Shown: positions 29,904 to 47,715 of the stretch, in pieces
How positions within the stretch are numbered: the stretch's first letter is position 1
How the letters are laid out: each line of letters begins with the position of its first letter
The notes under the pieces: model-generated
What the model was told of the DNA's origin: nothing
What the model saw: the letters and a program-made list of their open reading frames with translations, nothing else
Database searches by the model: none
Origin: a virus
Reading direction: 5' to 3' (one strand)
Length of the DNA: 64,000 bases
Virus record (IMG/VR): IMGVR_UViG_3300030002_000003
Location: 29,236-93,235 of that record
Position numbers and translations under genes: made by a program

Positions 29904-29975
29904 TCGGCTAAGCGAGATTTGAACTCGCATACTATCTATTTCTAGATCTCCATGTACCAATGTGGGCATTAGCCT
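29904..29975 (-). ncRNA. tRNA-like RNA with a GAAA tetraloop in place of the anticodon loop
   Basis: (A)GGCTAA-TG-CCCA CATTGGTACA TGGA-G-ATCTA GAAA TAGAT-AGTAT-GCGAG TTCAAAT CTCGC-TTAGCC(G)A. Confidence 0.75.
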
Positions 29976-29983
29976 TCCGTTAT

Positions 29984-30952
29984 TTAATTAATCATTTGTT
30001 CAAAGATATTTGCTGCTTTCGCATATCCTACCTTTTTCACTAAATCACTAATATCTTTTGTTTTGTACTTCTTATTGATAAAAACGAAGTCTAGATTATA
30101 CTCTTTTGCTAGTTTTCTAGTAAATTGCATTCCAGTTTTGTCTCTATCATAAAATATTACAATTCTTTTGAATCTCCCTTTTATAGTGTCTATTGCGATT
30201 GTAGATATGATTGCGCTTTCGCTCGGTGGAGCTATTGCCTCATACCCCATTTCATGCAGTGTCATAACATCCTTTAAACTTTTGGTGATTATTAATAGAT
30301 CGCCATTTTCTGACAATTGTTCATACCCCTGAATATCTAAATTGCTTAAGTTTCCTCGCCATTTGTCAAATTTCTTTGCTAATGGCCTGTATATCTTAAA
30401 TTTGTTAAACACTTTATAACTGTAAATTGGATTGTCTGATTCGTATTTGCCTTTAACTTCTCCATTTACTAGAAATCTAGATAGAGCATTTACATTGTAC
30501 TCTTCTAAAGTTTCTTTAGATATACCAAACTGTTTCCAGAATAGTAAATCTTTTTCACTAAATGGTCTTCTAACTACTTTTATCTCAGTTGGCCTACTTG
30601 CGAATGTTCGTCTAGTTACCCGTATCTGAATTTGGTCTAGATTCATTTCCTTTTGGATTTCCTCTAAAGTTTCTTTGTATGTTGTGTAACCTCTTAGTTT
30701 CTTTACAAACTTAAATACGCTTCCGCATTCTCCATTTGCAAGATCTTTATATAGTAAAGTTCCGTCTCTATTGCTCACAAATATTCCAAATGAGGGACTT
30801 GGATCTTCCCTCAATGGACTATTATATGATTTCCCAATTTTAAAATCTCCAATGTACCGTTTAAAAATATCGTATTCCGATACCTTGTCCAATATATCCG
30901 AAAATTCTAATCGCTTGGGCTGCGTTTCTAATATAATGTCTGTGTTAAACAT
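29984..30952 (-). CDS. DNA primase (DnaG/TOPRIM, crAss type)
   Basis: N-terminal SPLREDPSPSF; TOPRIM ITKSLKDVM and FYDRDKTG; C-terminal KDISD. Confidence 0.85.
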   Translation of the reverse strand: MFNTDIILETQPKRLEFSDILDKVSEYDIFKRYIGDFKIGKSYNSPLREDPSPSFGIFVSNRDGTLLYKDLANGECGSVFKFVKKLRGYTTYKETLEEIQKEMNLDQIQIRVTRRTFASRPTEIKVVRRPFSEKDLLFWKQFGISKETLEEYNVNALSRFLVNGEVKGKYESDNPIYSYKVFNKFKIYRPLAKKFDKWRGNLSNLDIQGYEQLSENGDLLIITKSLKDVMTLHEMGYEAIAPPSESAIISTIAIDTIKGRFKRIVIFYDRDKTGMQFTRKLAKEYNLDFVFINKKYKTKDISDLVKKVGYAKAANIFEQMIN

Positions 30953-30964
30953 TTCAATTACTTA

Positions 30965-31552
30965 TTAGAATGGACTGTTTGAAGTTGCTCCAAATGTAGC
31001 GGCTGCTGATTTGGTAGTTTGTTCTACGTCCCCCATTTCTGGTCTAACGAAAACGTCAATCTTTAAGTCTTTCACTTTTGATTCGCTAGCTGGGATTTCC
31101 ATGCTTTCGATAAATGTGTATTTGGCGTATTTTGGGAGTGATGTGTATCCCGTATTGCCATATACGACTTTTAGTCTAACTTTCTTTGATTTGTCTGTTG
31201 CATCTAGCATTCCTTTTACCCATTTACCAAATTGGTCAAATGATTCGGCGCTAAAGCTGCTTAATTGTTCTTTTGTATACCAAACTTGTAAGATCTGAAG
31301 TATTCTTCTAACTTGGTTATTGGCTTTCGCTTCTAATTCCTCGGTAGACTGATCAGCTCTTTTTGTTGGTTCATATTCAGTGTGAGTTAACTGTGCTCCG
31401 TTCTTATCGAACGCGAATTCTAGAAATAAATTTCCGTTTGCACTTCTTTCCTGTCTAACTCCTACTAGGCTTACATCTTCATGTATACCTCCTTCTAAGT
31501 ATGAAACATCTTTAGTTTCTATCTTAAAAGCACTATCTGTACTAAATATCAT
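30965..31552 (-). CDS. Putative ssDNA-binding protein
   Basis: Lies between primase and AAA ATPase; beta-rich N-terminus and a flexible tail ending SPF. Confidence 0.5.
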   Translation of the reverse strand: MIFSTDSAFKIETKDVSYLEGGIHEDVSLVGVRQERSANGNLFLEFAFDKNGAQLTHTEYEPTKRADQSTEELEAKANNQVRRILQILQVWYTKEQLSSFSAESFDQFGKWVKGMLDATDKSKKVRLKVVYGNTGYTSLPKYAKYTFIESMEIPASESKVKDLKIDVFVRPEMGDVEQTTKSAAATFGATSNSPF

Positions 31553-31563
31553 CTTCTTCTCTG

Positions 31564-32307
31564 TTAATCGTTATCTGGTAAAAATACCCTGTCCCAAAAG
31601 GTTGTGATTCTGTTGTCCTCGTCGGATTCAGCGATCACTATTTCTTGTCCCCTTATGTGAGGCTGTCTGGCCTCTACTATAAAGTCTCCTCCTCCATTGA
31701 AATTCAAAATCGTTTGATTCTTCATTCTATAAAGAAATCCTATTGCGTCAGCATCAGCTGCTACTAGCCTTGCTGTTTTACCTGATAAGTCTATAGACAT
31801 TTCGCTTAATTCTTTTCCGTCCTTATTGATCATTGCGTCCTTAACGTGGCAAATCAATATTAATGTAGGGGATAGTGTTTTAAACATGTCTATAACCTTA
31901 AAGAAGGCCTCTCTTACGAAAAGCCATCCAGCTCCATTTGGAAGTTTTCTAACGTCATCGTTGTAGTTCTTTCCTTGTGGAGTTTCTTGGTAAAGTTTTA
32001 AAGCAAGCGGCATAATCATTTCTTCCAACTTAGTTCCATTGTCAATGGTTACATAGTTATAGATATATTTGCCAGCTGCTTTATTTGCTGTTGCAATTGA
32101 TGCGGCTGTTTCAGAAAGTTCTGTTATATTTGCAGCCTTCACTACCATTGCTGATAAGAAATCTGTCCCGTTTTCGAGGTCAATTATAAGGTTATTTTCT
32201 AAAGCAGCCGCGATTGTAGTCTTTCCTGACTTAGGTTTCCCAAAGTACACGAAAAATTTTGGATTTGATATTTTCGGAGTGCTTTTTATCGTTGGTAGTG
32301 TAATCAT
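31564..32307 (-). CDS. AAA_24/Sak4-like P-loop ATPase
   Basis: Walker A GKPKSGKT, IIDLENG, VTIDNG and LICHVKD. Confidence 0.85.
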   Translation of the reverse strand: MITLPTIKSTPKISNPKFFVYFGKPKSGKTTIAAALENNLIIDLENGTDFLSAMVVKAANITELSETAASIATANKAAGKYIYNYVTIDNGTKLEEMIMPLALKLYQETPQGKNYNDDVRKLPNGAGWLFVREAFFKVIDMFKTLSPTLILICHVKDAMINKDGKELSEMSIDLSGKTARLVAADADAIGFLYRMKNQTILNFNGGGDFIVEARQPHIRGQEIVIAESDEDNRITTFWDRVFLPDND

Positions 32308-32421
32308 ATATTTTTATGTATATTCTGACGCTACTGTGATTTGTATTTTGATAAGATTTGATAAGTGGTGATATGATTTGTTAATTATTCACGGCTCTGT
32401 CATTTGTATTTCATCCGAAGA

Positions 32422-32961
32422 TTAGTACAAGTTTTTGATTGTGATCACCAGCGTTTTGATTGTTTCCAATTGAGCTGATGTGTAAACATTACTGTTCGCT
32501 TTGGTGCGAGGGATAATGTTCAAACCAATTTTGAAGAAGTTATCGAAAACTTCTACCTTTTGGCCTCCTGTGTAGAATGATGAACCGGTTTCACGAGTTA
32601 CATATTTTGGTGCAGGTTTGCGAGCTGCTGCGAATGCGGCAAGTTCTGATTCGATTTTATTCCAATCTTTTAACAGATTGTATACTGGATTGTAACCTTT
32701 GCCACATGCGTAGTTAGGATCTTTTACCCAGTTAATATCGTGGTTTTTCGCGGTTCCGAAAGTCAACAATTCTGTTGGTCCGGCATATTCAATTCCTCGT
32801 AGCTCACGACCCGATTTCAATGTGAAAGGGGCATCCATACCGGCAATGGTTAACCATGGGTATTTTGTGGTGATGTTTTTTACAAACTGTGATTTGTAAT
32901 AACCGTTTTTGTCTTGAGCGATCGTTGGCAATTGTACTGCGAAAGTTGATTTATTTGTCAT
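32422..32961 (-). CDS. Hypothetical protein
   Basis: 179-aa ORF within the replication operon. Confidence 0.7.
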   Translation of the reverse strand: MTNKSTFAVQLPTIAQDKNGYYKSQFVKNITTKYPWLTIAGMDAPFTLKSGRELRGIEYAGPTELLTFGTAKNHDINWVKDPNYACGKGYNPVYNLLKDWNKIESELAAFAAARKPAPKYVTRETGSSFYTGGQKVEVFDNFFKIGLNIIPRTKANSNVYTSAQLETIKTLVITIKNLY

Positions 32962-32972
32962 CCTGGTAATTT

Positions 32973-33959
32973 TTAAATTTTAATTTCTAATTGTGTCTCT
33001 GGCGCTTTTTGTTCTTCTTCTTCAGATTCTTTTAAGTTATTATATTTTAAGTCGTTTATGAACTTAAGTATTTTAACTTCCCCCTCTCTATTCTTTATTA
33101 TGTGTAGGTATATGCAGTCTCTTACAGGGAGGTTTTGAAATCCATAAGATAGGATTCCTAGTATTTCGGGGCGGTGTATTACTATTACGTAATCTGAACC
33201 TTGAAATACTGCATCACTTGACGATAAGTCTGAGCGTTGTGGGTAATGCAATGAACTATTGTTTATCCTCTCTGGACTTTCAATGTTTCTGTTCATTTGC
33301 GATATCTGAATAATGGAGGTTTTGCCAATTTTCTTAGCCTCCATAAGTGTTTTCTCTAAATCTACTATTATTTCTCTTTCTCCACCAGTACCACTACCTT
33401 TAATTAGTAATGTATGGTCTATTATAACAACTAGCCATTTTCCTTTGGCTAGCGTCTCCTGAAAGAAACTAATAGTATTTGCAATCTCTTGTACATTCCC
33501 TGGTGTGTCTACATAGTAAATCGGATAGTTTACTATCTCCTTTGCTTCTGATTCTACACTGGCAATGTCCGCTTCTGATATAGGGCCTGATTCGGCCGCA
33601 CTATATAATTCAGTAGTGGTTTTTTTGAGTTTGTAGGATAATTTTCTACCAACTTGCTTACTCGCTAACATCTCAAATGAAAACGATAATACGATTGTTG
33701 ATTCATCCTGATTTAGATCTATTAGATCAGTTTCTAACGAATTCACAAATGAACTTTTACCACTGCCAGAAATTCCGGCAATTGTATATATTGCATTTGG
33801 CTCTATACCCCCCATTGTTAGTCGGTTTAGTTTAGGCCATCTCGTTACTAACGATTTTGCTTTATTTGTTCTTCTGTCTTTGATATATCTAACAATTTCT
33901 CCTGTTGCTGATGATATATGCCTGTAAGTTAATATCTTTTTATTCGACTTTAGCTCCAT
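32973..33959 (-). CDS. dnaB: DnaB-like (SF4) replicative helicase
   Basis: Walker A GISGSGKS, SFEM, IIDHTLL, ISQMNR, DYVIVIHRP and IIKNREG. Confidence 0.88.
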   Translation of the reverse strand: MELKSNKKILTYRHISSATGEIVRYIKDRRTNKAKSLVTRWPKLNRLTMGGIEPNAIYTIAGISGSGKSSFVNSLETDLIDLNQDESTIVLSFSFEMLASKQVGRKLSYKLKKTTTELYSAAESGPISEADIASVESEAKEIVNYPIYYVDTPGNVQEIANTISFFQETLAKGKWLVVIIDHTLLIKGSGTGGEREIIVDLEKTLMEAKKIGKTSIIQISQMNRNIESPERINNSSLHYPQRSDLSSSDAVFQGSDYVIVIHRPEILGILSYGFQNLPVRDCIYLHIIKNREGEVKILKFINDLKYNNLKESEEEEQKAPETQLEIKI

Positions 33960-34506
33960 ACATTTCATCTGCATTTCTAATCACACTTACATCGTTCATG
34001 GCATCAGCATAGAGTAACCACTCTTCTGATAATAACCATTTTGACATCCTCTTCATGTATTGCAATGAATTTCCTGCTTTTCGAGTTTTAACCTCGAAAT
34101 TGAGACACTCAAGCATTGATTCATGCTTACTTAAACTTTTTCCTACTATCTTTTGATAGTATTTTCTGCACCTTGAAATATCACCACGTAGGTAATCCTT
34201 CTGTCCATCTGGTCGAGTCGTTGAAGTTGGATAAGCTTCATAGAATTCATCGAAAAAGTCTCTTTGCTTATACTTCATTTTGAAGTTTTCAGTAAGATGC
34301 AGATTCTTTGTTATTCCATCAGTGTAAGTTGATTCTGTTGTTAGTATATTTTGTTCTTTTAAATTATTAATATCTGTATCATCAATGCGGATAACATTAA
34401 TCAATGATTTGATATCAATTTTGTCTATTAATAATTTAATTAGTACAAACTGATTCATAGTAATTTTAAGGCGTTTAGCCTCGTCCAAATCTATTTCTAT
34501 CAGCAT
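33940..34506 (-). CDS. Putative replication initiator/helicase loader
   Basis: FDEFYEAYP and KWLLSEEW segments typical of phage initiator C-terminal domains; overlaps the helicase start. Confidence 0.5.
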   Translation of the reverse strand: MLIEIDLDEAKRLKITMNQFVLIKLLIDKIDIKSLINVIRIDDTDINNLKEQNILTTESTYTDGITKNLHLTENFKMKYKQRDFFDEFYEAYPTSTTRPDGQKDYLRGDISRCRKYYQKIVGKSLSKHESMLECLNFEVKTRKAGNSLQYMKRMSKWLLSEEWLLYADAMNDVSVIRNADEMYGAKVE

Positions 34507-34811
34507 TCTATTTTTTACTTTAAAGTTAAAAAGGGAATATTTGATAAAATTTGATATGATTTGTGTTTGTAGGAGTGGTATCGACTTCCGGAATCGGCTA
34601 GTATAAAACTCCCTAAAAATAATTCTAGCATTCTTTTATAGACGCAATAATGCAAATTTTGTCTATATTTTTATTGGTAGATTAGTAATGCATGAGTAAT
34701 TTATGTCGGACTCGATTGCTTGCCGTATTTATTACTAATCTATTGTTAAAGCGAGGGGATTGGACCCTCTTATCAATTTGTCATATTGATATTCTCCGTT
34801 GCCTTATTTGT

Positions 34812-35648
34812 TTAAATTCCATTCCATAATGGTGGCGTTATAGTTACTCCTTGATTTCCGAAGTAATGCCTAGTTTCTCCTACATTTCCTAGCCGTGATC
34901 CAATGTAACTCGTACTTCTCAGCTCATTTAATTGTGCGTATATGCTTCGGTTTACTGGGTCGTTAAAAATTGCGCTTGTTTCTGTTGGTTGCGATGATAC
35001 TGGCTCTTCATTAGGAATACTTACTCTTACCGTTTCAGAATCTTCTTTCGTAGATATAACGTAAGTCGCCTTGGTTGGCTCTTGTGCCAATTCTACTAAA
35101 TTGTCTAATTTTTCCATTGCAATCTCATCCAATGTTTTTTGTACGAACTCTTCAGCGCCTAACTTTTCCTGAATTTCAATTGCAATATCTTCGTAAGCTT
35201 CATTAGTCAGTTCGATGGTTTCTATTCCATCTATTGATTTTTCTCCCTTTCCTCCGATATAGATTGTTTTTTCGCTTGACATTCCTTTTAAGTAGTCCCT
35301 AAAGATTTCCTCATCTCTCATGTCGAAGTTATTTATAATCTTGGTTACTTCTATGTCTGTTTTTTGAAACGCTTTTCTTTTGAATAAGTAGCTTACTAAA
35401 CATCCCTTTCCTATTGCCGCTTCTATCGCATCCGTCAGTTTATTGCTGAGATCTGCATTAATTTTGACAATATCGTCACCAGGTATCTTTATGTATTTTA
35501 CTGCTCCAATAGTGGCACCTTCTGCTAAATCTCGTATAGGTTTAGCATAGTCTAAAAAGACTGGCATTACCTTAGATGTTTCGTAGGTCGCGTTAACTAT
35601 CTTTTCCTTTAAGCTGTTAGTTAAAGTATTTGATAATATTATGATCAT
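34812..35648 (-). CDS. Hypothetical protein
   Basis: 278-aa ORF on the operon strand. Confidence 0.7.
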   Translation of the reverse strand: MIIILSNTLTNSLKEKIVNATYETSKVMPVFLDYAKPIRDLAEGATIGAVKYIKIPGDDIVKINADLSNKLTDAIEAAIGKGCLVSYLFKRKAFQKTDIEVTKIINNFDMRDEEIFRDYLKGMSSEKTIYIGGKGEKSIDGIETIELTNEAYEDIAIEIQEKLGAEEFVQKTLDEIAMEKLDNLVELAQEPTKATYVISTKEDSETVRVSIPNEEPVSSQPTETSAIFNDPVNRSIYAQLNELRSTSYIGSRLGNVGETRHYFGNQGVTITPPLWNGI

Positions 35649-35651
35649 TTG

Positions 35652-36122
35652 TTATTCGATTTGAAATTTAACTTTTTCGTTATAAGTGTCCAATTCCTTT
35701 TGGGCAAGTGCTTTTTGCTCGTTTAAGATTACGAGTTCTTTTTCAATGAATTGGCGAGTGAAAGTTACGGATTCTCCGTCTTCTTTCTTTGTTGGAATTC
35801 GCTCAATTTTCGTAATTCGTTCTTTCAGCTGTTGCAGCGTGAAGATTGTCGGATATACACAATTCGTTGGAATCTGACTTGGTTCTGTAAGACCCATGTT
35901 GATTGCCTGAATGTATACTTTCGTTTTAATCAAATTTGCTTCGAATTTTTTAATTTCGGCATATACTGCGGCTAGATCAAATAATGGTTTAGAACCATTT
36001 TTGAATACATTGTATTGATTGATACGAGCCCAGTTTTGTTTGATCCCTTCGATAAGAGATTCGCGTTTTTCGATTAAGATCTGAGAAGTTGATTTTGTTG
36101 CTGGTAATGTTGTTTTTGTCAT
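35652..36122 (-). CDS. Hypothetical coiled-coil protein
   Basis: Likely start MTKTT at 36122; helical composition. Confidence 0.7.
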   Translation of the reverse strand: MTKTTLPATKSTSQILIEKRESLIEGIKQNWARINQYNVFKNGSKPLFDLAAVYAEIKKFEANLIKTKVYIQAINMGLTEPSQIPTNCVYPTIFTLQQLKERITKIERIPTKKEDGESVTFTRQFIEKELVILNEQKALAQKELDTYNEKVKFQIE

Positions 36123-36213
36123 ATTGATTATATATTTTAGATTGATACATGTTTTATCTAACCCAAATACATTTCTCCCTGTGTTGACTATTGAGTGATC
36201 ATTCCCAATAGTC

Positions 36214-36250
36214 AAAAAAATCAGTCTCTACGTTTGCAGAGACTGATTTT
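36214..36250 (-). terminator. Intrinsic terminator
   Basis: AAAATCAGTCTCT/AGAGACTGATTTT stem with a T7 tract on the minus strand; a second 10-bp hairpin abuts it at 36184-36215. Confidence 0.7.
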
Positions 36251-36396
36251 GTATTTTTAAAGTCCAAATTTTATTATAGTTATAGTTTTGTAGAGAGACA
36301 TTAAAGTTGGTGCTATTCCATACAGTGTTACCCAAGGTCAAGCTCTTTAAGTTTTTAAGGTGTTGCCCATCTTTCTTTATTCTATTTCTACTTTTA

Positions 36397-36927
36397 TTAA
36401 TCTTCTTCTATTACTATTACTTGGTCAGCTTGATTAAACATAGCTGCAATGTTATTCGCGGTACTACGTTTGTTGAAGCTTGATTTTGTAAACGAGACTA
36501 CATTTTGTATAGTTGGTTTACGAAAAGATTCTCGGAGTTCGACTGTAATTTCTTGTCCGATTGGTTGTTTGCGCTGCTGCGACAGCATTATTGGTTCCTC
36601 CATCGTTATGTGCGCTTGGTACAAAAGACGGATAATTTCAGTTCTATCACATTCTCCTAAGAGTTCGTCCATTGCTGCACGAGTGAGTTGTTGCACGAAA
36701 AGGAAAACTTCCTTTTTATTACAGATACCATCAATAATGGTTTTTACCGCAGATAGAAAATCTACTCTGTTGTCCGGTATTTTCCAAAGCCATCTTACGA
36801 TAACTCCATGTTTATTGTATGATACTTCGCCACGTCCATCAATTATGAATGTATTTGGCGGATTCATGTACTGGTTGACGAGTTCAGAAAATCGAACTAC
36901 ATCAACGTAAGATAATCCTTTTTTCAT
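36397..36927 (-). CDS. Hypothetical protein
   Basis: 176-aa ORF. Confidence 0.7.
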   Translation of the reverse strand: MKKGLSYVDVVRFSELVNQYMNPPNTFIIDGRGEVSYNKHGVIVRWLWKIPDNRVDFLSAVKTIIDGICNKKEVFLFVQQLTRAAMDELLGECDRTEIIRLLYQAHITMEEPIMLSQQRKQPIGQEITVELRESFRKPTIQNVVSFTKSSFNKRSTANNIAAMFNQADQVIVIEED

Positions 36928-37427: not shown

Positions 37428-37439
37428 TTTTTTTAATTT

Positions 37440-39265
37440 GGTTTTTTAATATTGATTATTTATTCGGGATTTGATTCCCATTGATTGTTTGCATATGTTA
37501 GCGCGTAGCTTAATGATAGAGTCTGTCCAACAAGGCCCTCCTGATCAATTAACAATGTTTGCTTTGAAAAAAAACACCTAATTTACGATTAGATTATGGG
37601 TTTTGCGCCCACTTCAGTTATTAGTTCGATATTTGCCCGTTTAAGGCTGTTTTGCGGCGTTCTAAGCCATTGTAATATTGAAATTGATAAATTGCATAGC
37701 TTTGAATGAAATGCTCTTATATCGCTTTAAAATGCTTTTACTAAGTAGTATGTTAATTATGGGCTGCTCCATCAATTAAATCACTTTATACCATGTTACT
37801 GTCTATTTAGTAATAGATCTATAAACAGATTGGCCTGTGTACAGTATATATTGTGACCGTTTGCCTACCATTTGTCCGTTGTTTTTACTTTTCTGTTTGA
37901 AAACAAAAACAGTGAAAAAGAACCCATAATGTGCGCGAATCTCGTATTAGCTCCTCATATAAATGAATATTGGTGTTCTAAAATCCCTAGTAAGCCCTCG
38001 AATGCTTAGCGCTATTTAATCTTTTGATTGATATTTCTTTGTATTTCCTCTATTTAGTGACGATTTTTTATCTCCCAGGCAAGGGACTACTTCGAGATTA
38101 TTAATTTATCTCGTTTCGCTTTGTGTACAGTTTGGACCTGCTTGCTTTCGGTATTATTCGTTAGACGACCAGCATGTTAAATACTTAGGTTCCTAAACTT
38201 TAAGGCATTCTTAATCTATTTCCTGACCCGTGTCGGTCTTTCTATAAATCGTTGACATGATCTTTTAAGTAACTTCATGTTTCTACTTTGTGTTGGTGCT
38301 TGGCTGCTGCCTCCATTCAATATTCCTCCCCTGAGGATACTTACTAATACACAGTAATACTATGGGTGAATTACTTTCCCTAATTCGCAGCTTTTGATTC
38401 CTAGCGGTAGAATCTGTTGAAATGTATTATCCCATTTCAGGACTTCCGATCTCTGTTGTGTCATCGGGTAACACTCTAGTTCTTTAATTGCGCAATACAT
38501 TATACCTTGTAACGCAGGTTGTTAATTTCCATCTTTTTCTTCTGTCATAAATTAACTAAACTCGACAGGGGCTCTCACTCCTTATTCCTAAAGGAAACTA
38601 TTGAACTGGCCAATACTTGAAGGCTTGAGATATAGTTATGGTGCTGCTTATGTATTTTTCACATACATATCTTGCTAACTATTTTTACTCCTGGTCTTAT
38701 GCTTTCTGGACGGCCTATCTTGGAGTGATACTCAATTTGAGCTGAGTTTTTGAATGGTATATAATTTGTGCCCTCCCACGGTTTCCTTATATCCTTTGTT
38801 TGTGATTCATTTTTTTCCACCATCACTAGTGGCCTGCTTGGTAAAGCATACTATCGGCTTTCGCCTTAATTGTTCTCTAGATTCCAAAGTCATAAAGCCA
38901 ATTCTACTTCCGCGATACACTGCGCAAGCTTAAAGCATGTGTGGATTTTCTCAAAAGCTATTCCGTGCTGTTCAGCCCTTTACGCGTTGTTTCATGGCGG
39001 GGCTGAGTCGTCTACCATCGGGGGTTTCATCGTTTTGGACATTTTATATAGCGGCAGTCCCCAGTCGCATTTTAATTGCATATCTCTACCAAAGTGGCAT
39101 GACAATCTCGTTAGTGATTAATATTATGATAACTTTATGATAGCTACTACCTTTTATATAGCGCCCTGCACTCTATCGACCGAGTAACGCTTCAGCTTTC
39201 TATTGATTCCCCTTTTGCTGATATTTGGTCTCCATTTCCTCTCACACCTGTTTTGTGCGGATTTT
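37440..39265 (-). ncRNA. Candidate large structured non-coding RNA(s), about 1.8 kb
   Basis: No minus-strand ORF of 60 aa or more; many hairpins and a 10-bp long-range complement. Confidence 0.45.
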
Positions 39266-39267
39266 GT

Positions 39268-39606: not shown

Positions 39607-39607
39607 T

Positions 39608-40075: not shown

Positions 40076-41038
40076 TTACTTTGCAGGGTAACCTTTTTCA
40101 ACGTAAGGTTTTCGTCCTTGGCCTCGTTCAATTAATGTACGAGTTTCTGGTGACATTACTGTCACGATTCGGCCAATTGTCCGTTGTACTTTTTTCAAGT
40201 CGGCTTCTTTCAAGACGTCTGTTGCATTAAATCCAAGCAGTTGTTTAACCGCAAAGATGCAATCCTCATCTTGTTTGTACAATTGAGATACTAAACCGTC
40301 ATTCCTTTTCCCTAAGATTCGTTCCAGGTCGCTTCGAACATAGGCCTCTGTCTTTGGATCTGCAATTGTTCTTTTGAGTGAATCTTCAACGATTCGAGAA
40401 ATTTCGGTATCTCCCCATTCCGGTACGTGCTTAGCCACTGATTTGAAGGCAAAGATCGGTCCCTTCATTCTGCATTGCGCAGAGATGTGTTTATCCCATG
40501 TAGGCATAATTGGGCTGTCAGTAATCATGTCTCGAATTTCGGTCCATGCATCAGCTGGCATAAGGTTTTGTCTACCTGCATGTTCGATGTAGATTTTAAC
40601 TGCATCTGGCATACGTTCAGTGAATTTTCGAGATAACATCTCCTGAATAACTTCCATGTAATTCTCGCTCGTTGCGACTGGAATGTCACCTTTGCGAATT
40701 ACAAGCTTCTTAGTCTTGTTTGGTTGTTCTTCAGTTGTGTATGCGATCTCAATTTGAGTGTCGTTCGTCACATTGCGTGCTTCTGGCAACGCTAGCTTCA
40801 AAATGTCAGTATTGAAGTCTCGGCCTGTAAGGGCTTTGAATTCTGGGGCCACTGCTAACAATGTGGCAAATGCTGCCTCATCGATAACCATATCGATAAC
40901 ATCTTTGTTTTCGATTAATTTATTCTTTTTACTGGTGTTTGTTTCCGCCGCTATGCGGATTTCCAGTTGATCGCGATACTTCATGACGTCCTTAATGTCC
41001 ATCATGAATGATGGCCGGTCGTCAACGTGTTTATTCAT
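40076..41038 (-). CDS. Hypothetical protein
   Basis: 320-aa ORF. Confidence 0.75.
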   Translation of the reverse strand: MNKHVDDRPSFMMDIKDVMKYRDQLEIRIAAETNTSKKNKLIENKDVIDMVIDEAAFATLLAVAPEFKALTGRDFNTDILKLALPEARNVTNDTQIEIAYTTEEQPNKTKKLVIRKGDIPVATSENYMEVIQEMLSRKFTERMPDAVKIYIEHAGRQNLMPADAWTEIRDMITDSPIMPTWDKHISAQCRMKGPIFAFKSVAKHVPEWGDTEISRIVEDSLKRTIADPKTEAYVRSDLERILGKRNDGLVSQLYKQDEDCIFAVKQLLGFNATDVLKEADLKKVQRTIGRIVTVMSPETRTLIERGQGRKPYVEKGYPAK

Positions 41039-41123
41039 TTTTTCCTCCTTTGTTTTTGATTTTGATAATTAAAAATAAGTTTGCTTTTGCTGATTCACAG
41101 CTTATGCTGATTCAATTGTTTTG

Positions 41124-41507
41124 CTAACTTGTGTTTAATATCATATCGCTGCGTGGAGGCCGCCGAGTGCATACAGTGTATGCTGCTTTAGTGGTTGTTG
41201 ACTGAGGTGCTGGTACTACCATTTGCCGTTCCATTGTTGTGTTATTCATTGTAGTATTCATCGCAGGCCGTTCTAAGGCTGTTGCGTATACTTCAAATGA
41301 ATTCAATGGTAAGCAAAATAATTCAGGTGCTACTGCTGGAACATTATTGATTGCCAAAGATTTGCTTACGATTGCATGGTCTTTGTTTTGTGCTATCAAC
41401 GTTGTTTGTTCTGGCATAAACACTCCAAATAGTACACCCAAAAGCATCACGAAAACCGATTTAGCCAAGAAATCCATTCCCGCTAAAAACAATTGATTTG
41501 TCTTCAT
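41124..41507 (-). CDS. Membrane protein overlapping the sigma gene end
   Basis: Single N-terminal hydrophobic helix (SVFVMLLGVLFGVFM); sits where anti-sigma genes usually lie, but there is no sequence support for that role. Confidence 0.55.
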   Translation of the reverse strand: MKTNQLFLAGMDFLAKSVFVMLLGVLFGVFMPEQTTLIAQNKDHAIVSKSLAINNVPAVAPELFCLPLNSFEVYATALERPAMNTTMNNTTMERQMVVPAPQSTTTKAAYTVCTRRPPRSDMILNTS

Positions 41508-42060
41508 TTTTTTTACTTTTTTGGTTAATATTTGAAATTATTTTCTCTTTGTATCTGTGAAGATAGTGTTTTATTGTCCCGATACTAAGGCCCAATCTAT
41601 CTGCAATTTCTTGATATGTTAATTCTTCGGTAAATCTCATTTGGATTATCTCCTTTTGTCGACTTCCCATTTTACTGATAGTTTTTGCTAGCATTTCAGA
41701 TTCCTCTTTCTTTATCATTTCCTTTTCAGGATTTGAATAATCAGTATGGACAAATTCTTGCTCTAGTTCATCGTCTATATATAGATCTCCTTGACTCTTT
41801 TTTCCGCTACGAATAAAGTCTATTGAATGGTGATTTGCTATAGTTTTGAGCCACATCTCAAATGAAATGTCTTTTGTGAATTTATCTATGCTTTTAAATG
41901 CCTTTAGGAACGTTTCTGACGTTAGATCGTCTGCTACGTCCTTATTCTTCACTATGTTATATACATTGCAGTAGACTGCTCTATAATGCGTATTATACAG
42001 CATTGTGAATGCCTTCTGTGAGCCAGCCTTGGCTAATTCAATTGCCTCTTTACTTGTCAT
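41461..42060 (-). CDS. ECF-type (sigma-70 group 4) sigma factor
   Basis: Region 2 AFTMLY...ADDLTSETFLKAF...FEMWLKTIANHHSIDFIR; region 4 HTH LTYQEIADRLGLSIGTIKHYLHR. Confidence 0.92.
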   Translation of the reverse strand: MTSKEAIELAKAGSQKAFTMLYNTHYRAVYCNVYNIVKNKDVADDLTSETFLKAFKSIDKFTKDISFEMWLKTIANHHSIDFIRSGKKSQGDLYIDDELEQEFVHTDYSNPEKEMIKKEESEMLAKTISKMGSRQKEIIQMRFTEELTYQEIADRLGLSIGTIKHYLHRYKEKIISNINQKSKKNEDKSIVFSGNGFLG

Positions 42061-42159
42061 ATATATAAAAATTAAAAACTACAACCCCTCGTAGCAATTC
42101 ATATCTTTTAGGGGACTCCGACTCTGTAACGACTTTGTCTGCGAGTGATATTTTATTAG

Positions 42160-42282
42160 CGCCCCATCCGAGAGTCGAACTCCGATATGGTGTCAGGCCT
42201 TTTCCATCGAACCAACTTTCATAACTTCTTATTATATTCCTGCCGGTTTATAATCTTTCATTACTTCCGCCCATCTTGGGGC
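42160..42282 (-). ncRNA. tRNA-like RNA (acceptor stem and T arm) with an expanded interior
   Basis: GCCCCA...TGGGGC-G-CTA acceptor; TCGGAG TTCGACT CTCGGA T arm; no anticodon arm visible. Confidence 0.5.
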
Positions 42283-42786
42283 TTATTAGTGGTTATCAAG
42301 CATTTCTGCTCAAATAACCTAATAGAAATACAAGATTCTAACTTGTCACGCCTACAGCGATTCTATTGTTTAGCACCCTCTTGTCTTATCGTTGTAATAC
42401 CGATTCAAGAGTAGGGTCTGGCTGAGAACTCATTTGTATTGTGTTAAAACGTTAAGTTTATTCTTTTTCAAATAAATGTACTGTTTAACCTTACAGCTTT
42501 CTTAAGTCTGCAATACATACAGGATTACTCCACCACTAGCGCTAGCCATGTGATTCTCGTTAATTCGAAGTTTATGTCATCTAATTTATTGATCGCTATC
42601 AATGTTTAGAGCGATATTTTGTAGGGATAAAGCGTTTCACTGCTAAGTCATATCCCTTTACTGTGTGTTAGTACCACCATTACACAGCCTTCTGGTAATA
42701 TTAGCTATTGAGTAGCTAAAGTGGTTTTTCCTTTTCATCATAACTTTAATTACTTTTTATTTAGAATTGGTTTATTTAATATTAAA

Positions 42787-42925
42787 AATAATAACAAGGT
42801 CTTACTGAAGGATTTAGGAGATTAAGCACCCTGGTGCAAAAGCATATTTAAGAAGCATTCTTTATCTATGTCTATCCTATCCGGCTCTTCCGCTTTATTG
42901 TCAGTCAATGACGCTTGTTATTATT
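42787..42925 (-). ncRNA. Rod-shaped RNA candidate (6S-like)
   Basis: 12-bp closing stem AATAATAACAAG/CTTGTTATTATT, further internal pairings and a large asymmetric bubble; starts 2 nt after tRNA-Arg. Confidence 0.35.
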
Positions 42926-42927
42926 AG

Positions 42928-43001
42928 TGATTCCTAAAGGATTCAAACCTTTAACCGCTGCCTTAGAAAGACAATGCTCTATTCGGTTGAGCTAAGGAAC
43001 C
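42928..43001 (-). tRNA. tRNA-Arg(UCU)
   Basis: GGTTCCT-TA-GCTC AACCGAATA GAGC-A-TTGTC TT TCT AA GGCAG-CGGTT-AAAGG TTTGAAT CCTTT-AGGAATC-A; CCA not encoded. Confidence 0.9.
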
Positions 43002-43040
43002 ATTACCTGCGTTGAAGAGTCGCAGCCCTCTCGTTTCGGT

Positions 43041-43364
43041 TTAGGCGGCTTTTTCTTCTTTCTCAACAATATAAGCTTGATTTGACTTTGCGTTCGCTGA
43101 TCTCAACTTTGCCAAATCTCTGTTGAGTTTTTTGTTTTTTCCTACTTTCGTTGCTGATAATTTAGCTTTCGCTATAATTGCCTTTTTAGTTGCTTTCAAT
43201 AAAGCTACTGTTTCTTTGTCGATTGGGCGTATTCCTGCCTTTTTTACTCCTTTTTTTGCTGCTCGTTGAGCATGAGTTGAACTAACCTGATGTTTATCGT
43301 TAGCTATCATTGTTACAATGTTTGCTACTCTTCTCATTGCCCTTTTGCATTTCACTTTTCCCAT
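43041..43364 (-). CDS. Small Lys/Ala-rich basic protein
   Basis: Highly basic 107-aa ORF, possibly nucleic-acid binding; ends in AA. Confidence 0.65.
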   Translation of the reverse strand: MGKVKCKRAMRRVANIVTMIANDKHQVSSTHAQRAAKKGVKKAGIRPIDKETVALLKATKKAIIAKAKLSATKVGKNKKLNRDLAKLRSANAKSNQAYIVEKEEKAA

Positions 43365-43378
43365 TTTGATAATTGGTT

Positions 43379-43942
43379 TTATTTTTGTTTAATTAATAGT
43401 TCAATTTCTGCTCTTTGCTTCTCTCTTTTCTCAACTATTTGGTCCCATGATATTGGTATACCGTCTAATTGATCCCAACTAACACATGTGTAGTTTAAGT
43501 CTGGATATTCTGTTGCAATATATCCACCTGGTTGATATCTCCAAGCTTTTATGGTCTCTAAGTGAGTATGCGCATGAATATTAAATGCAAACCTATGTAC
43601 TTCCTGCGTATGCATTGGAAAGTGAGTTACCATTGCTCCATGATATTTCATTGCTCCAACAATAGATTCTACGTATTTAAGTAGTTCTGCTGAATGTTGT
43701 TTTAAATCATGATTTCCGCTTATGGATACCTTTCTCCCTAGTATTCTATCTAATAGATAATAATACTTTGAATTTTCCATAGTTGTGTCTCCTACTAGAT
43801 ATAATAATGAACGTTTATGTAATACTGAATTAAGTCTCCTTATTACTTCTTCGTTATATACATTTATATCATCAAATCCGCGTAATTTTGCAATTGCTGG
43901 ATGTCCTAAGTGTAAGTCTCCAATGAATCCTACGTCAATCAT
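43379..43942 (-). CDS. Calcineurin-like metallophosphoesterase
   Basis: DLHLGH, VGD, GNHD, THFP and HAHTH motifs. Confidence 0.88.
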   Translation of the reverse strand: MIDVGFIGDLHLGHPAIAKLRGFDDINVYNEEVIRRLNSVLHKRSLLYLVGDTTMENSKYYYLLDRILGRKVSISGNHDLKQHSAELLKYVESIVGAMKYHGAMVTHFPMHTQEVHRFAFNIHAHTHLETIKAWRYQPGGYIATEYPDLNYTCVSWDQLDGIPISWDQIVEKREKQRAEIELLIKQK

Positions 43943-44063
43943 TCCTGAAGAACCTCCATTTCACTTTTGCTTTTTGTTTCCAATTGTGGAATATTATGTA
44001 ATTTGGATCGTCTAGTATTGCTGTGGATGATTGTATCTTCCTTTCTATTACTTTCTTTGGCAT
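43935..44063 (-). CDS. Small hypothetical protein (42 aa)
   Basis: MPKKVIERK...RND fills the gap and is coupled to both neighbours. Confidence 0.5.
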   Translation of the reverse strand: MPKKVIERKIQSSTAILDDPNYIIFHNWKQKAKVKWRFFRND

Positions 44064-44064
44064 A

Positions 44065-44580
44065 CTAAAAAGGTAGATCAGATTCTTGACTAATGCACAA
44101 CTCTTGCCATTCACATTGCTTCATATCAATCAAATCAGAGCCTCTATCAATCATCAGATCAAATATCATTCGCTTTTCTTTTGGTTTTATTCCATTCAGC
44201 ATATTGCTTGCTATTTTTGAGTATACTTTTAGATTTGCCGTTGATATTTTATTTGGCCTAACTTCAATTAATTTTCCTATAAACCAATTATATGCCAGAA
44301 TATGCTTGGAATCATATGCTAATGTTTTCATCCATAGCGTAATATATTCAAGATTTTCCATTGGCTTTATATCTCCATTGAATCTATAAATATTTTTATT
44401 TCCGCTTAATGATATAGCTTGTTTGCCGCCCATTGAATTTATCCAATATTTTGAAACTGGTTGATTTGTTTCAAGTATTAGTGCATTTGCATACTCGTTG
44501 AATGACTTGAATAGGAATTCTATCTTTTTACCAAAGGCTGCTAATGTTATTATTGACCCTTTTTCTATTTTTTCATACAC
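44065..44580 (-). CDS. Hypothetical protein
   Basis: 171-aa ORF with a GTG start and DLPF C-terminus. Confidence 0.65.
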   Translation of the reverse strand: MYEKIEKGSIITLAAFGKKIEFLFKSFNEYANALILETNQPVSKYWINSMGGKQAISLSGNKNIYRFNGDIKPMENLEYITLWMKTLAYDSKHILAYNWFIGKLIEVRPNKISTANLKVYSKIASNMLNGIKPKEKRMIFDLMIDRGSDLIDMKQCEWQELCISQESDLPF

Positions 44581-44612
44581 GATTAAATTGATTTTAATTG
44601 TTAATGTTATTT

Positions 44613-44875
44613 TAAAACCCTACCAGGGCTAATTGAATAGACGTGCGGCTCTCGCTCACGACCTGGTAGGTACGTTCTAAATTATGCAGACATTAAGCCT
44701 ACGTAATTGTTGATTTGGATTGTGTTGTTGCCAGTTAATTAGCGTGTGCAGTCCTATCTGGTTCATCTTATGCCGCTGTCAAATCCAGGCAGCCCCTTAT
44801 GGTTTTTTATAAGGAGTGGAGCTGGAGGGGATCGAACCCTCGTCCAAACGGCGAATCCGCAGCCTACGGGCCGTA
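44613..44875 (-). ncRNA. ssrA: Circularly permuted (two-piece) tmRNA gene
   Basis: Acceptor piece GCCGTTTGGAC GAGGG TTCGATC CCCTC CAGCTCC A (ends 44817) precedes a 20-nt spacer and the coding piece starting GGGGCTGCCTGGATTTGACAGCGGC (44796); G3-U70 pair; tag frame 44732-44682 reads GNNTIQINNYVGLMSA*. Outer ends are approximate. Confidence 0.88.
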
Positions 44876-45358
44876 CTATTTTACTATTTCTATGTAGAAA
44901 TTAGCATTAATGTCTGTTGTTAGGAATCTATGCACTTGCAATGACGGTAATAATCTTACCTCCATTATTTTGTGCTCTAGTGAAAAACCTGTCAATTCAA
45001 CACGTTTCCCCCATAGACTCTGTCTGCTTTCCATTGTTGGTCCGATTAGCATATCGTAAAGTTCCTTTTCAACACTTCCTCCTCGTCTTTTAGACAAATG
45101 AATATGTACTGACTTTACTCTGTTTAGCCTCTTTTCCAACAATATTAAGTTGATTCTTAATAATCTTTCTTGTTGAGATAATCCTCTAAGAGAGACTCTG
45201 GTACCTGGATTGCATGAATCCCAGTTTGCATCTACGAAGCTACTTATCGTTTCTTCTTGTAAATGCAGCATTAGCGGCCTTATAGCGGCTATTGCGTCTT
45301 GTTTGTTATCTGCTTCACCGATCAAAGTGATGGCGATCTGTTTTTGATCTTTTGTCAT
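44876..45358 (-). CDS. Hypothetical protein
   Basis: 160-aa ORF whose stop abuts the tmRNA acceptor piece. Confidence 0.65.
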   Translation of the reverse strand: MTKDQKQIAITLIGEADNKQDAIAAIRPLMLHLQEETISSFVDANWDSCNPGTRVSLRGLSQQERLLRINLILLEKRLNRVKSVHIHLSKRRGGSVEKELYDMLIGPTMESRQSLWGKRVELTGFSLEHKIMEVRLLPSLQVHRFLTTDINANFYIEIVK

Positions 45359-45390
45359 TTTTATTATTGATTAATAAATTGATTTAACGT

Positions 45391-45440
45391 AAAAAAGGGA
45401 TAGATGTCGCACGAATATCACGCTTTATATCTATCCCCTT
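45391..45440 (-). terminator. Intrinsic terminator
   Basis: GGGATAGATAT...ACATCTATCCC stem followed by T6 on the minus strand. Confidence 0.65.
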
Positions 45441-45481
45441 TAGGCTGCCTGGTTAGGCGGCTCCACCAACTGGCGAGTCGG

Positions 45482-45595
45482 TTATATTCTTTGTTTAGAT
45501 TTGTTATACGGCTCCATTTTGCGTTTTGAACGCTCAATCACTTCTCCATTCATTTTGGCTTCTACTTTCCGTTGATCTTTTAATGTTTTACTCAT
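45482..45595 (-). CDS. Small basic protein (37 aa)
   Basis: MSKTLKDQRKVEAKMNGEVIERSKRKMEPYNKSKQRI with an A-rich leader; below the ORF-track cutoff. Confidence 0.6.
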   Translation of the reverse strand: MSKTLKDQRKVEAKMNGEVIERSKRKMEPYNKSKQRI

Positions 45596-45692
45596 TTGAT
45601 ATGAATTTAAAATTGTTAGACGTTTTGTTTTAAAAGAGTTAGCCTATATCCACTCTTAAAGGTATCTGATATATCCCTATCAGTTGAGCTAG

Positions 45693-45774
45693 TGCCGTTT
45701 TTGGGATTCGAACCCGTCAATCCATTGCTGGTTTCCAGAGCCTTAATAGGGCTATCATCCTATTAAGTAACGGC
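45693..45774 (-). ncRNA. tRNA-like RNA with aberrant D and anticodon arms
   Basis: GCCGTT/AACGGC-A-CTA acceptor; GGG TTCGAAT CCC T arm; 9-bp CTTAATAGG/CCTATTAAG hairpin. Confidence 0.55.
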
Positions 45775-45891
45775 TTATATTTAAAATGGTACTAACAGCT
45801 AGTTCGTTTCCTACTTAAGCTGCGTTCCCATTTATGGCTAGTAATTTTGAATGGCAAAATAATAATTAACTAGCCGTTATATTGTTAAAAG

Positions 45892-45962
45892 TAGCCCCGC
45901 GTGGAATCAAACCACATTTACCGCGCTGAAAGTGCGATGTCCTATCAGTAGACGACAGGGCC
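45892..45962 (-). tRNA. tRNA-Glu(UUC)
   Basis: GGCCCTG-TC-GTC TACTGATAG GAC-A-TCGCA CT TTC AG CGCGG-TAAA-TGTGG TTTGATT CCACG-CGGGGCT-A; one A31-C39 mismatch. Confidence 0.82.
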
Positions 45963-46095
45963 ATTTGACTATAAATAGTCATTGTTTAATTCAGGCAATA
46001 ATAATCCTCTCGTTGTAGACTGGTCAGATTATAATAACTATGATAACATATCAGTCCATTATTAGTTCTCCTCTTGAGAGTGACAGCCGTTTTTA

Positions 46096-46398
46096 TTATT
46101 TATTACCTGTAAATTTTTTTGAGATTTCATACCAGTACGGGTATCCATCTTTAGTTTCCTCCCAGCTAAATGATTTTACGATAAATTCGTTCCAATCTTT
46201 TTGCTTGTTGAGTATTGCTGCCGAGTCAATGTTTCTATGAGTATTTCTATCTACCCCTTTTAGGTGTAGCTTTAATTCTCTTGGCAGTAATAATTTCCGC
46301 GAAACATAACTTTTCATTTCTTTTACGAACTTTGATTTGATTCTCAGCCTTTTAAGCTTAAGCTCAAACTCTGGTTTAAATTGTATTTCAATTCCCAT
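46096..46398 (-). CDS. Small protein, FxW...GxxYW paralogue family
   Basis: KPEFELKLKRL...SFSWEETKDGYPYW. Confidence 0.7.
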   Translation of the reverse strand: MGIEIQFKPEFELKLKRLRIKSKFVKEMKSYVSRKLLLPRELKLHLKGVDRNTHRNIDSAAILNKQKDWNEFIVKSFSWEETKDGYPYWYEISKKFTGNK

Positions 46399-46424
46399 TT
46401 TGATAATGATTTAATTGTTAATAA

Positions 46425-47715
46425 TAGGTCCCAGCAACTCAATCAAGAGTTGGTCAGCGTTCATGCCTTGACTTCTGCTGGGCAGTAATCTGTTTAACTA
46501 GTATTTTTGGTATTGATCTTTGGTGTTCCTGACCTAAGTCCTTGTTATCCACGTGATTCAAATATCCTAACTATGCGAGATTACTAATGTGCCCGGCTGT
46601 CTATAAAACCTTACCCGTCTAAAACGGTAATGGGAGTTATAACGGTAATGGCAGTGTCCTTCGGATACCATTGCGTGCATTTCACTTACAAATACTACTT
46701 CGTGGCCCTCTGGCTCACTCCACTTCTAAACCTCTATCCATATCTGTAATAGTCTTCGGGTTAATTCTTTCTATCTGCCGTCGCCTTAAGATAGCTATAA
46801 TCTTCTTTCCAGCATTTCACTGAGCTTAGATTAGCGTTGTTTTCTCGGTTTTTATCTGAATTACACAGCATCCAATACTATCGTATTACCGAAAAGGGTT
46901 TACGCATTAATTCAATAATGTTACGTAACATAGATTCTTAATCAATCATCAGCTTACTGCACTTCATTTAGCTGCAACCATTCTATTCATTTCTCTTATT
47001 TGCATTCAATGCTTCTAAGTAGTTGAATAGGTTTTGGTGCCTTCACGCATATGCACCGCGCCTCAAAATTATTACGACTCCATTTCTGGTCCACGTATTT
47101 GAGTGCGAATTTCGTTAATCTTTTCTAATCAACTAATTATTATATAATATCCGTCTACATAACCCAAGTTCGATAATTGACTTATTCCCTACGCTGTAGG
47201 TTCAACTCCTTTCTCTCCCTGTTCACTGGTTCGGTTTGCATCATACTTCCATAGATATTATAAATAACTAGTAATTAACATGAGAATTTCTTCTAAATCC
47301 TTATCAATCGATAATATATAATACTTACTCTTCGTCTCACGACGTCTGGCTGAAGTATAGTACCAGAATATATGTAAAACGTTTGCCCATCCATGTTCTG
47401 TTTTAAGTATTTTATCTTTTACTTACATTGGTTAAGACCACTCTCCGCCTTGCTAGCTCAGCTTACTGTTTTTATTCAGCATCTGCCTCGACATTTTTCT
47501 ATGGGTTTCTCGATTTGCATGCAGCTAGGTGTACATGCCTATTTTCATGATCCATGAATCACTTCTCCGATAACTTATTTTGGTCTGTGTAAAAAATACC
47601 TCTTAATCAGTCTGCCCTTTGGAAGCAGATGCGACATGTTAACAAAAGACACTAACTCACGCTTTCTCCTACTTGTGGTCTGGATACTAAACAATATGGT
47701 TAAATGCCTTTTTTA
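46425..47715 (-). ncRNA. Candidate large structured non-coding RNA(s), about 1.3 kb
   Basis: No ORF of 60 aa or more on either strand; many hairpins. Confidence 0.45.

Follow-up and report, generated by a model that had tools for sequence, protein, structure and literature searches.

A probable island of independently evolving RNA genes in a divergent crAss-like phage

RNA genes and tRNA-like folds at the locus

The DNA analyzed here (the window) is a stretch of 64,000 nucleotides comprising bases 29236-93235 of the 93,235-bp virus record IMGVR_UViG_3300030002_000003. Its minus strand, on which all RNA features of the window lie, carries a circularly permuted (two-piece) transfer-messenger RNA (tmRNA) gene, genes for tRNA-Arg and tRNA-Glu, several tRNA-like folds, and four tracts free of open reading frames (ORFs), nc1 to nc4 (Table 1). 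An earlier note on this DNA had proposed that such elements form a single RNA toolkit built on tRNA-shaped parts. That several genuine RNA genes are collinear on one strand is borne out here; the interpretation that we favor, with a probability of roughly 0.6, is that of a collinear island in a leftward early/middle block whose RNA genes evolve independently of one another, and not of one co-adapted toolkit. The island includes nc4, which appears to encode a large folded RNA, and a conserved tRNA-like RNA, TLS-C.

The phage is a divergent member of the Suoliviridae (delta crAss-like phages). Its sigma-factor gene has matches in the uncultured crAss-like phages cr10_1, cr118_1, and others, where they are annotated as "RNA polymerase sigma factor", and cr10_1 is classified in the Crassvirales, family Suoliviridae. 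The plus strand of the window holds ORFs of 4522 and 2111 aa, and the minus strand from ~53 kb down to 23 kb is densely packed with short ORFs that include a primase, a helicase, and the sigma-like gene. With the sigma protein as query, 233 relatives were recovered from IMG/VR, and 80 loci were kept for comparison; identity of this protein is 59-70% for L001-L008 only and 40-48% for the remaining loci, which are mostly from gut phages; relative to the gut-group loci themselves it amounts to 41-48%. In public phage records, megablast and blastn found matches to tRNA-Arg and the sigma gene only. Runs labeled "RNA-Seq" from wastewater and aquatic samples gave long multigene contigs of a strain ~92% identical to the window, which are probably DNA.

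Table 1. Features of the minus-strand RNA locus; the coordinates of TLS-A, TLS-B, TLS-C, and the rod are those of the earlier note.
Feature	Coordinates	Strand	Evidence or remarks
nc4, ORF-free tract, 1840 nt	37428..39267	minus	covariation-supported core 37753-38518
TLS-C, conserved tRNA-like RNA, 82 nt	45693..45774	minus	covariation; fold z -2.7
nc1, ORF-free tract, 1322 nt, candidate large structured RNA	46399..47720	minus	conserved blocks and helices at ~46600-47320
nc2, ORF-free tract	45359..45891	minus
nc3, ORF-free tract	42061..42926	minus
Circularly permuted (two-piece) tmRNA gene	44591..44908	minus	ARAGORN; Rfam RF04321, 55.7 bits against a gathering score of 47, model 1-213
tRNA-Arg (TCT)	42927..43001	minus	ARAGORN; Rfam RF00005, 56.9 bits
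tRNA-Glu (TTC)	45891..45962	minus	ARAGORN; Rfam RF00005, 38.6 bits; cloverleaf at minimum free energy
TLS-A, tRNA-like element	29904..29975	minus	clean cloverleaf; GAAA tetraloop in place of anticodon loop
TLS-B, tRNA-like insert in sigma leader	42160..42282	minus	strain-specific
Rod-like fold adjoining tRNA-Arg	42787..42925	minus	fold z -2.4; lineage-specific
Conserved hairpin (AGGGATATGACTTAGCA..CGCTTTATCCCT)	42623..42657	minus	alignment A3; nhmmer matches to nc3 142-310 in L001, L004, L005, L008, L100
Terminator-like hairpin, 11-bp stem then U run	45395..45440	minus	minimum free energy -18 kcal/mol, z -2.8; U run read from sequence
Short ORF, ~38 codons, starting ATGAGTAAAACATTAAAAG	~45478-45594	minus	between TLS-C and terminator-like hairpin; start aligns with L003
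Phage sigma-factor gene	41461..42060	minus	PHROG 1740, E 8e-29; synteny anchor
Metallophosphoesterase, 187 aa	43379-43942	minus	PHROG 547, E 3e-38; Pfam Metallophos slightly subthreshold

The long ORF-free tracts

The four tracts together amount to 4.56 kb, so that the earlier claim of more than 3 kb of ORF-free sequence holds. A tract was called ORF-free if it lacked any ORF of at least 60 aa in six frames under code 11, with TAG read as Q, or under code 4. Recoding was rejected as an explanation, as neither the TAG=Q nor the TGA=W translations open the tracts. When all stop-to-stop peptides of at least 20 aa from the four tracts were used in tblastn searches, no frame-specific conservation of peptides was seen; the matches are short and, at any one place, occupy multiple frames and both strands, a pattern that indicates conservation of nucleotides and not of coding. 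The whole window was scanned with Rfam at the gathering score, and the section 29500-54700 also at E up to 5-10; these scans returned the tmRNA, the two tRNAs, a subthreshold match to TLS-A, and nothing else.

The tracts had also been described as rich in hairpins. This is upheld for nc4 by covariation and, on three sequences only, for nc1; nc2 is not all RNA gene, being a composite of TLS-C, an ORF of ~38 codons, and the terminator-like hairpin.

The giant RNA tract nc4

Most of tract nc4 has a homologous counterpart in L001 and L003 (nhmmer E 3e-74 and 1e-50), and the alignment consists of strongly conserved islands with variable spacers between them. A search with the island motif GTCACTARATAG-N55-85-TTYAGAAYACC recovered 13 stretches from IMG/VR and 6 from JGI, which represent nine distinct sequences with 46-62% identity to the window. 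For the 347-nt island at 37930-38276, RNAalifold gives 44 pairs in 9 helices, 25 of these pairs with double changes, and an independent count finds pairing in 93.2% of cells, compared with 76.7% for shuffles, none of 500 of which reaches the observed value. Several G-U pairs of the island are invariant and would read A-C on the opposite strand. Over the whole-tract alignment, helices extend from 38518 to 37753 and contain 62 pairs, 40 of them compensatory, with 65 G-U cells and 5 A-C cells. Toward the 3' end, at ~37565-37595, lies a conserved AU-rich hairpin followed by U8. No Rfam family matched nc4. On this comparative evidence, nc4 appears to encode a large minus-strand RNA, many helices of which are kept by compensatory changes, and the view of the long tracts as RNA genes, not junk, is supported.

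A structured RNA locus kept across the family

When nc4 is placed into the context of the wider family, additional insight is gained. In nearly all of the 80 loci, a gap without ORFs begins ~3.4 kb past the sigma start and measures 1.2-2.4 kb, and cr10_1 has an unannotated 2.1-kb gap at the matching place. Within the gut group, this 2.1-kb gap is kept almost end to end at 69-82% identity; its DNA shows 70-82% identity at 56-93% coverage, compared with 66-75% at 6-73% for the flanking coding DNA. An alignment of 13 gut-group loci yields 293 consensus pairs in 63 helices, with 96.8% of cells paired (88.8 +/- 0.2 in shuffles), 112 pairs with double changes (57.7 +/- 4.3), and 316 G-U against 35 A-C cells, and nested helices spanning 150-330 nt occur throughout the consensus. 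No Rfam family matched the gut-group gap.

We conclude that nc4 is probably the window lineage's version of a ~2-kb structured RNA locus kept family-wide ~3 kb downstream of the sigma gene. The window and the gut viruses share the family, the strand logic, the position relative to the sigma gene and tmRNA, the absence of ORFs, and dense covarying helices. A hairpin motif, TWAAGCYY..RAARTRGG, is also common to the window's subclade and the cr10_1 group, with 14 sense and no antisense matches. At the level of the sequence the two are far apart: a covariance model built on the nc4 domain (R1) gave no significant match in 26 distant loci (best E 0.94), and nhmmer profiles of the nc4 islands reached the subclade only, the gut-group RNA not being detectably alignable. 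By BLASTP, the proteins flanking nc4 have no similarity to cr10_1 proteins, so that the sigma gene is the sole anchor of this synteny.

The gut relatives differ from the window in a further respect, as Rfam already holds pieces of their RNA islands. On the gene strand upstream of the tmRNA, they carry RAGATH-7, the Hatchet self-cleaving ribozyme (RF02678), RAGATH-9, and RAGATH-20 (L011:2002-7611 and L057:4822-8426), and in L011 additionally a group I intron. No Hatchet, RAGATH, or group I match was found in the window at the gathering score or at E up to 5-10, nor any Hatchet or RAGATH motif in L001, L003, L005, and L008; the window lineage carries tRNA-shaped units instead. The set of ribozyme, RAGATH motifs, and intron in gut relatives suggests that an RNA-rich, self-processing early region is a family trait, and the fact that a divergent, ribozyme-free lineage has retained a large structured RNA in the corresponding place argues that this RNA is important for the family.

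Suoliviridae rank among the most common phages in animal guts and wastewater, and their early regions hold large folded RNAs for which no description was found in the databases or literature searched. Regions of crAss-like genomes without recognizable proteins were noted as unexplained by Yutin et al., with no RNA described in the text searched (PMC7886860). The window lineage contributes three things that are new, namely, a ribozyme-free lineage that keeps the giant RNA, the conserved TLS-C, and evidence for fast turnover of lone tRNA-like folds, and it can serve as a useful outgroup by providing distant sequences for structure testing.

One or several RNAs, or DNA elements

It could be proposed that the long tracts are strings of separate small structured RNAs together with cis-regulatory leaders, similar to the RAGATH and ribozyme arrays of gut viruses. 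The separation of the conserved islands by variable, indel-rich spacers would fit such an arrangement, as would the limited reach of the supported helices in the window lineage (at most ~160 nt), the arrays of discrete 100-210-nt Rfam motifs upstream of the tmRNA in gut relatives, and the mosaic of short modules that makes up the upstream gap in those genomes. This contrasts with the gut-group 2.1-kb gap, the near end-to-end conservation and nested helices of which (see above) are less readily accommodated, and with the finding that no internal terminator-like site was detected in nc4, its sole conserved hairpin-plus-U-run being at the 3' end. We therefore regard a string of small RNAs as a tentative alternative, with something like one chance in four.

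A cis-acting role of the tracts as DNA, in replication origin, packaging, or regulatory function, or an origin as debris of dead genes or of introns that lack ORFs, is considerably less attractive, and we consider it very improbable. Tract nc4 does lie in a replication-gene neighborhood, with helicase and primase genes downstream, and nc3 is an indel hot spot. Delta crAss-like phages have numerous group I introns (PMC7886860), and L003 and L011 have group I introns nearby. However, compensatory changes are strand specific with a strong excess of G-U over A-C, and the level of conservation is above that of flanking genes. Furthermore, the group I and group II models of Rfam did not match the tracts at E up to 5, although the group I introns of L003 and L011 were picked up by the same search; the tracts are not bordered by parts of a split host gene, and the peptide searches revealed no remnants.

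Two side observations concern these regions in relatives. The group I match in L003 (L003:16016-16233, 78 bits) lies downstream of the nc4 homologue. A 47-nt module, AAAAAACTCAATAACTTCCCAAGACATTGAGGGCACCAGTTTCTTA (L069:1342-1387 and ~45 other loci), is 92-100% identical across very diverged gut Suoliviridae; it lies within the otherwise mosaic upstream ORF-free gap and is missing from the window.

The conserved tRNA-like RNA TLS-C

TLS-C consists of a 6-bp acceptor, a 9-bp hairpin, a variable mini-hairpin, a T arm with UUCGAAU, and a C after the discriminator. It has neither a D arm nor a standard anticodon arm, and the 9-bp hairpin stands in their place. The 7-nt loop of this hairpin, AUGAKAG, is almost invariant and varies at the would-be anticodon, which reads GAU or GAG. 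In the alignment with L001, L003, L005, and L008, the acceptor shows compensatory changes (GTT/AAC, GCT/AGC, AGT/ACT, and AAC/GTT), as do the 9-bp hairpin and the T stem, and RNAalifold gives 18 pairs, half of them with double changes (9) and 0 broken. A covariance model of TLS-C (R2) scores 61-104 bits in the window, L001, L003, L005, L008, and L100 only, and nothing comparable was found beyond these six genomes of one subclade; the Rfam tRNA model does not match TLS-C at E up to 5-10. The pattern of substitutions thus points to a tRNA-shaped RNA that has been kept under selection in one subclade. This D-armless RNA of 82 nt is new and small enough for direct biochemistry.

The terminator-like hairpin downstream closes a unit of nc1, an ORF, tRNA-Glu, TLS-C, and the small ORF. 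At the head of this unit, nc1 is homologous in L003, L005, and L008 only. RNAalifold on three sequences gives 99 pairs, 24 with double changes, including long-range helices of 10-11 bp, and no Rfam family matched; nc1 is a probable second structured RNA.

It could be speculated that TLS-C-like RNAs replace Hatchet-type ribozymes here. They would recruit host RNase P and RNase Z, cut the long early transcript, and thereby free one or two giant folded RNAs of 1.3-1.8 kb, which would constitute a new class of phage RNA machine. We consider this scenario unlikely, at perhaps one chance in seven.

The tmRNA and the two tRNAs

The permuted tmRNA proposed earlier is confirmed, both by ARAGORN and by a score above the gathering score of RF04321. 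Its gene runs in the order acceptor 3' piece and T arm, acceptor 5' piece, tag ORF, closing stem, and U run. As read from the sequence, GGGGCUG of the acceptor 5' piece pairs with CAGCUCC of the 3' piece, which yields the alanine identity pair G3-U70 and then A73. The tag given by ARAGORN, in a reading frame with a resume codon and a stop, is GNNTIQINNYVGLMSA*, with a hydrophobic C-terminal end followed by A. Of the 80 related loci, 49 have a permuted tmRNA according to ARAGORN, in the corresponding position ~2 kb upstream of the sigma gene. The tags of related loci are akin to each other and end in LVA, LAA, or AVA (..NNYVGIIAA*, ..DYTRLVA*, and ..QLAVA* among relatives). RefSeq already has a tmRNA annotated in cr10_1 (KNV33_gs01), and L003 and L005 have RF04321 matches below the threshold, with longer inserts.

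Both tRNAs form a cloverleaf with a 7-nt anticodon loop and score above the curated RF00005 score, and tRNA-Arg is kept upstream of the sigma gene within the subclade. They had been described as elbow variants, which is correct: in each, a D loop with GA and a T loop with UUUGA make up an A19-U56 elbow. We compared tRNA-Arg(TCT) of the window with its orthologues in L001, L003, L005, L008, L042, L050, L062, and L064, and the 19-56 pair covaries, with GA and UUUGA in 4 genomes and GG and UUCGA in 5. This covariation indicates that the tRNAs are under selection, and the A19-U56 elbow reads as an ordinary compensated tertiary pair that alternates with G19-C56. It gives no support to the idea of evasion of a host factor.

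The tmRNA and the two decoding tRNAs, which act on host translation, belong to the ordinary equipment found throughout the family. As separate observations, the ~92% identical wastewater strain has 729 extra letters that replace 10 nt at the anticodon loop of tRNA-Arg (window 42959-42970), which would fit an intron within this gene, and a 98-nt match to the tRNA model at L005:4575-4672 may represent an interrupted tRNA.

Strain-specific mimics and the rod

Three anticodon-less tRNA mimics had been proposed. All three fold as described, and only TLS-C is conserved, TLS-A and TLS-B being missing from relatives. TLS-A was not called by ARAGORN, and with 27.0 bits (E 0.033) it falls short of the gathering score of the Rfam tRNA model, which is 29; its fold z is -1.8. 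It has no match in public phage records and was not found 3' of the primase gene in three related genomes; a ligase-like protein used as query for relatives that span this region retrieved two distant loci only. The alignment with the ~92% identical strain stops at 29974, the edge of TLS-A. In a strict scan of the window for an acceptor plus T arm, TLS-A was the only minus-strand match; approximately one match per window is expected by chance, and the scan was too stringent for both real tRNAs, which have U56.

TLS-B folds no better than shuffles (z -1.2; 23 of 200 shuffles fold equally well) and is missing from every relative in alignment A3. In the contig of the wastewater strain, 42155 is joined to 42286, a clean indel of 130 nt that removes TLS-B. 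The rod-shaped RNA of the earlier note likewise folds and has no homologue among relatives. An identity as 6S RNA was rejected, as there is no Rfam match at E up to 5 and no homologue in relatives. Near the rod, the close strain has a 395-nt replacement at 42773-42785, and the stretch also includes the 729-nt replacement and a 250-nt skip. We read TLS-A, TLS-B, and the rod as young strain-specific insertions or decaying tRNA genes, not as working parts. With two of the three mimics strain specific, a tRNA-like fold alone is weak evidence of function.

The tRNA-like units had further been singled out for their 3' ends, which read N-CTA, CTT, CTC, or CAA. A C after the discriminator is indeed present in every tRNA and tRNA-like unit of the window. 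It is present also in nearly all tRNA genes of related phages, and because it is general among the tRNA genes of the family, such ends do not mark the units of the window as a special set.

One toolkit or independent parts

The toolkit of the earlier note would be a co-adapted system in which tRNA-shaped units punctuate the early transcript and release RNAs for ribosome rescue, transcription switching, or defense against tRNA-targeting nucleases. The distribution of the parts does not follow such a scheme. The tmRNA and the giant RNA locus occur throughout the family, TLS-C is confined to six genomes, and TLS-A, TLS-B, and the rod are strain specific, and these differing phyletic spreads argue that the parts are not one system. 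Nothing was found that links the RNA set to transcription switching or to defense against tRNA-targeting nucleases.

What could speak for co-adaptation is that all parts lie on one strand, interleaved with short ORFs, that the rod adjoins tRNA-Arg and 113 nt separate tRNA-Glu from TLS-C, and that every unit has the C after its discriminator. The presence of Hatchet and RAGATH motifs in the same block of gut relatives also makes transcript cutting a theme of the region, and with tRNA-shaped units in their stead in the window, punctuation by host enzymes is attractive as a hypothesis. The shared C loses its weight as a general feature of the family's tRNA genes, however, and the candidate cutting units are mostly not conserved, with two mimics and the rod being strain specific and located in an indel hot spot. 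Moreover, no RNA-repair or anti-nuclease gene was identified, a generic metallophosphoesterase and the sigma factor being the only genes matched. A co-adapted toolkit is therefore improbable, and we would give it no better than one chance in eight.

For the favored island of independently evolving RNA genes, it can be hypothesized that the RNAs are made within long read-through transcripts. They would be freed from these at the tRNA, tmRNA, and tRNA-like units through the action of host RNase P and RNase Z (or exonucleases), and further via terminator-like hairpins at ~45400, ~44610, and ~37570. The large RNAs might subsequently work in trans as stable folded molecules, much like GOLLD and ROOL. 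Processing of the island units by tRNA enzymes is plausible. Excision from longer transcripts by tRNA-processing enzymes is established for both tRNAs and permuted tmRNA (for permuted tmRNA, PMC11915505).

Several points weigh against this interpretation. Between its conserved islands nc4 aligns poorly, and it is possible on this account that the tract contains several RNAs, not one. The link from nc4 to the gut-group RNA consists of position and one short hairpin motif, and the support for nc1 is limited to three sequences. When the pairing partners in the 347-nt island of nc4 are slid, 27-40% of cells are paired, a contrast that is overstated because RNAalifold structures are fitted to the alignment.

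Comparison with known RNAs

A parallel outside the family is with GOLLD (RF01998) and ROOL (RF03087), which are likewise large, intricately folded, protein-free RNA genes of phages and prophages and often lie beside tRNA genes. Neither model matched the window at the gathering score, and the section 29500-48500 gave no match to them at E up to 5 either. GOLLD measures ~800 nt and ROOL ~580 nt, and relative to these sizes the window tract is about two to three times longer. Both ornate RNAs have been the subject of cryo-EM work (10.1101/2024.12.08.627333).

Within the crAss-like phages, two long intergenic regions of phi14:2 (g004-g005 and g005-g006) are reported, on the basis of RNA-seq, as long noncoding RNAs transcribed above most genes, early and persistently (10.1101/2020.03.07.982082), and represent the closest experimental parallel for expression. 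Like the window tracts, they are long, intergenic, and located in an early arm of a crAss-like genome. Phi14:2 differs in belonging to another Crassvirales family, and the available text reports neither structure nor covariation.

Crass-like phage hosts are Bacteroidota, which use one-piece tmRNA. Two-piece tmRNA is known from alpha- and betaproteobacterial and cyanobacterial lineages, whereas here the carrier is a crAss-like phage, and the tag GNNTIQINNYVGLMSA is long. The window gene otherwise conforms to phage two-piece tmRNAs in its permuted order, a tRNA-like domain above the Rfam threshold, a tag end that is hydrophobic and then A, and placement in an early block. Such phage genes are documented in Melnitz (PMC9004378), and the tmRNA database holds 79 phage tmRNAs (PMC11915505).

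Another tRNA-based arrangement is found in phage T4, which is not known to have a tmRNA or a giant RNA and has no known sequence relation to the window. The T4 tRNA cluster and the stable RNAs C and D are cotranscribed, and host RNase P, together with further enzymes of tRNA processing, excises them; some of the small stable RNAs of T4, which measure ~120-140 nt, have tRNA-like ends.

Neighboring genes and minor observations

The metallophosphoesterase gene is placed between the tmRNA and tRNA-Arg, and nothing connects it with RNA repair. Two ORF-free gaps of ~0.6 kb each, at 53077-53658 and 54064-54625, lie where the gene strand switches. A scan for sigma-70 promoters was uninformative, with 64 sites against 64.9 expected, and the terminator scan overlooked AU-rich and long-loop hairpins, which were then folded by hand.

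Upstream of the sigma gene, the conserved hairpin within nc3, AGGGATATGACTTAGCAGTGAAACGCTTTATCCCT, is kept in L004, L005, and L008, no more than ~50 nt away from the sigma start; the window has ~550 nt of additional sequence between this hairpin and the sigma gene. Directly 5' of the sigma start codon, a conserved leader at 42062-42150 on the minus strand, TATCACTYGCAG .. AGTCGGAGTCCCCTAAAAGATA, is kept in the window, L001, L003, and L004 and partly in L002, and may be a promoter or an element of the 5' untranslated region.

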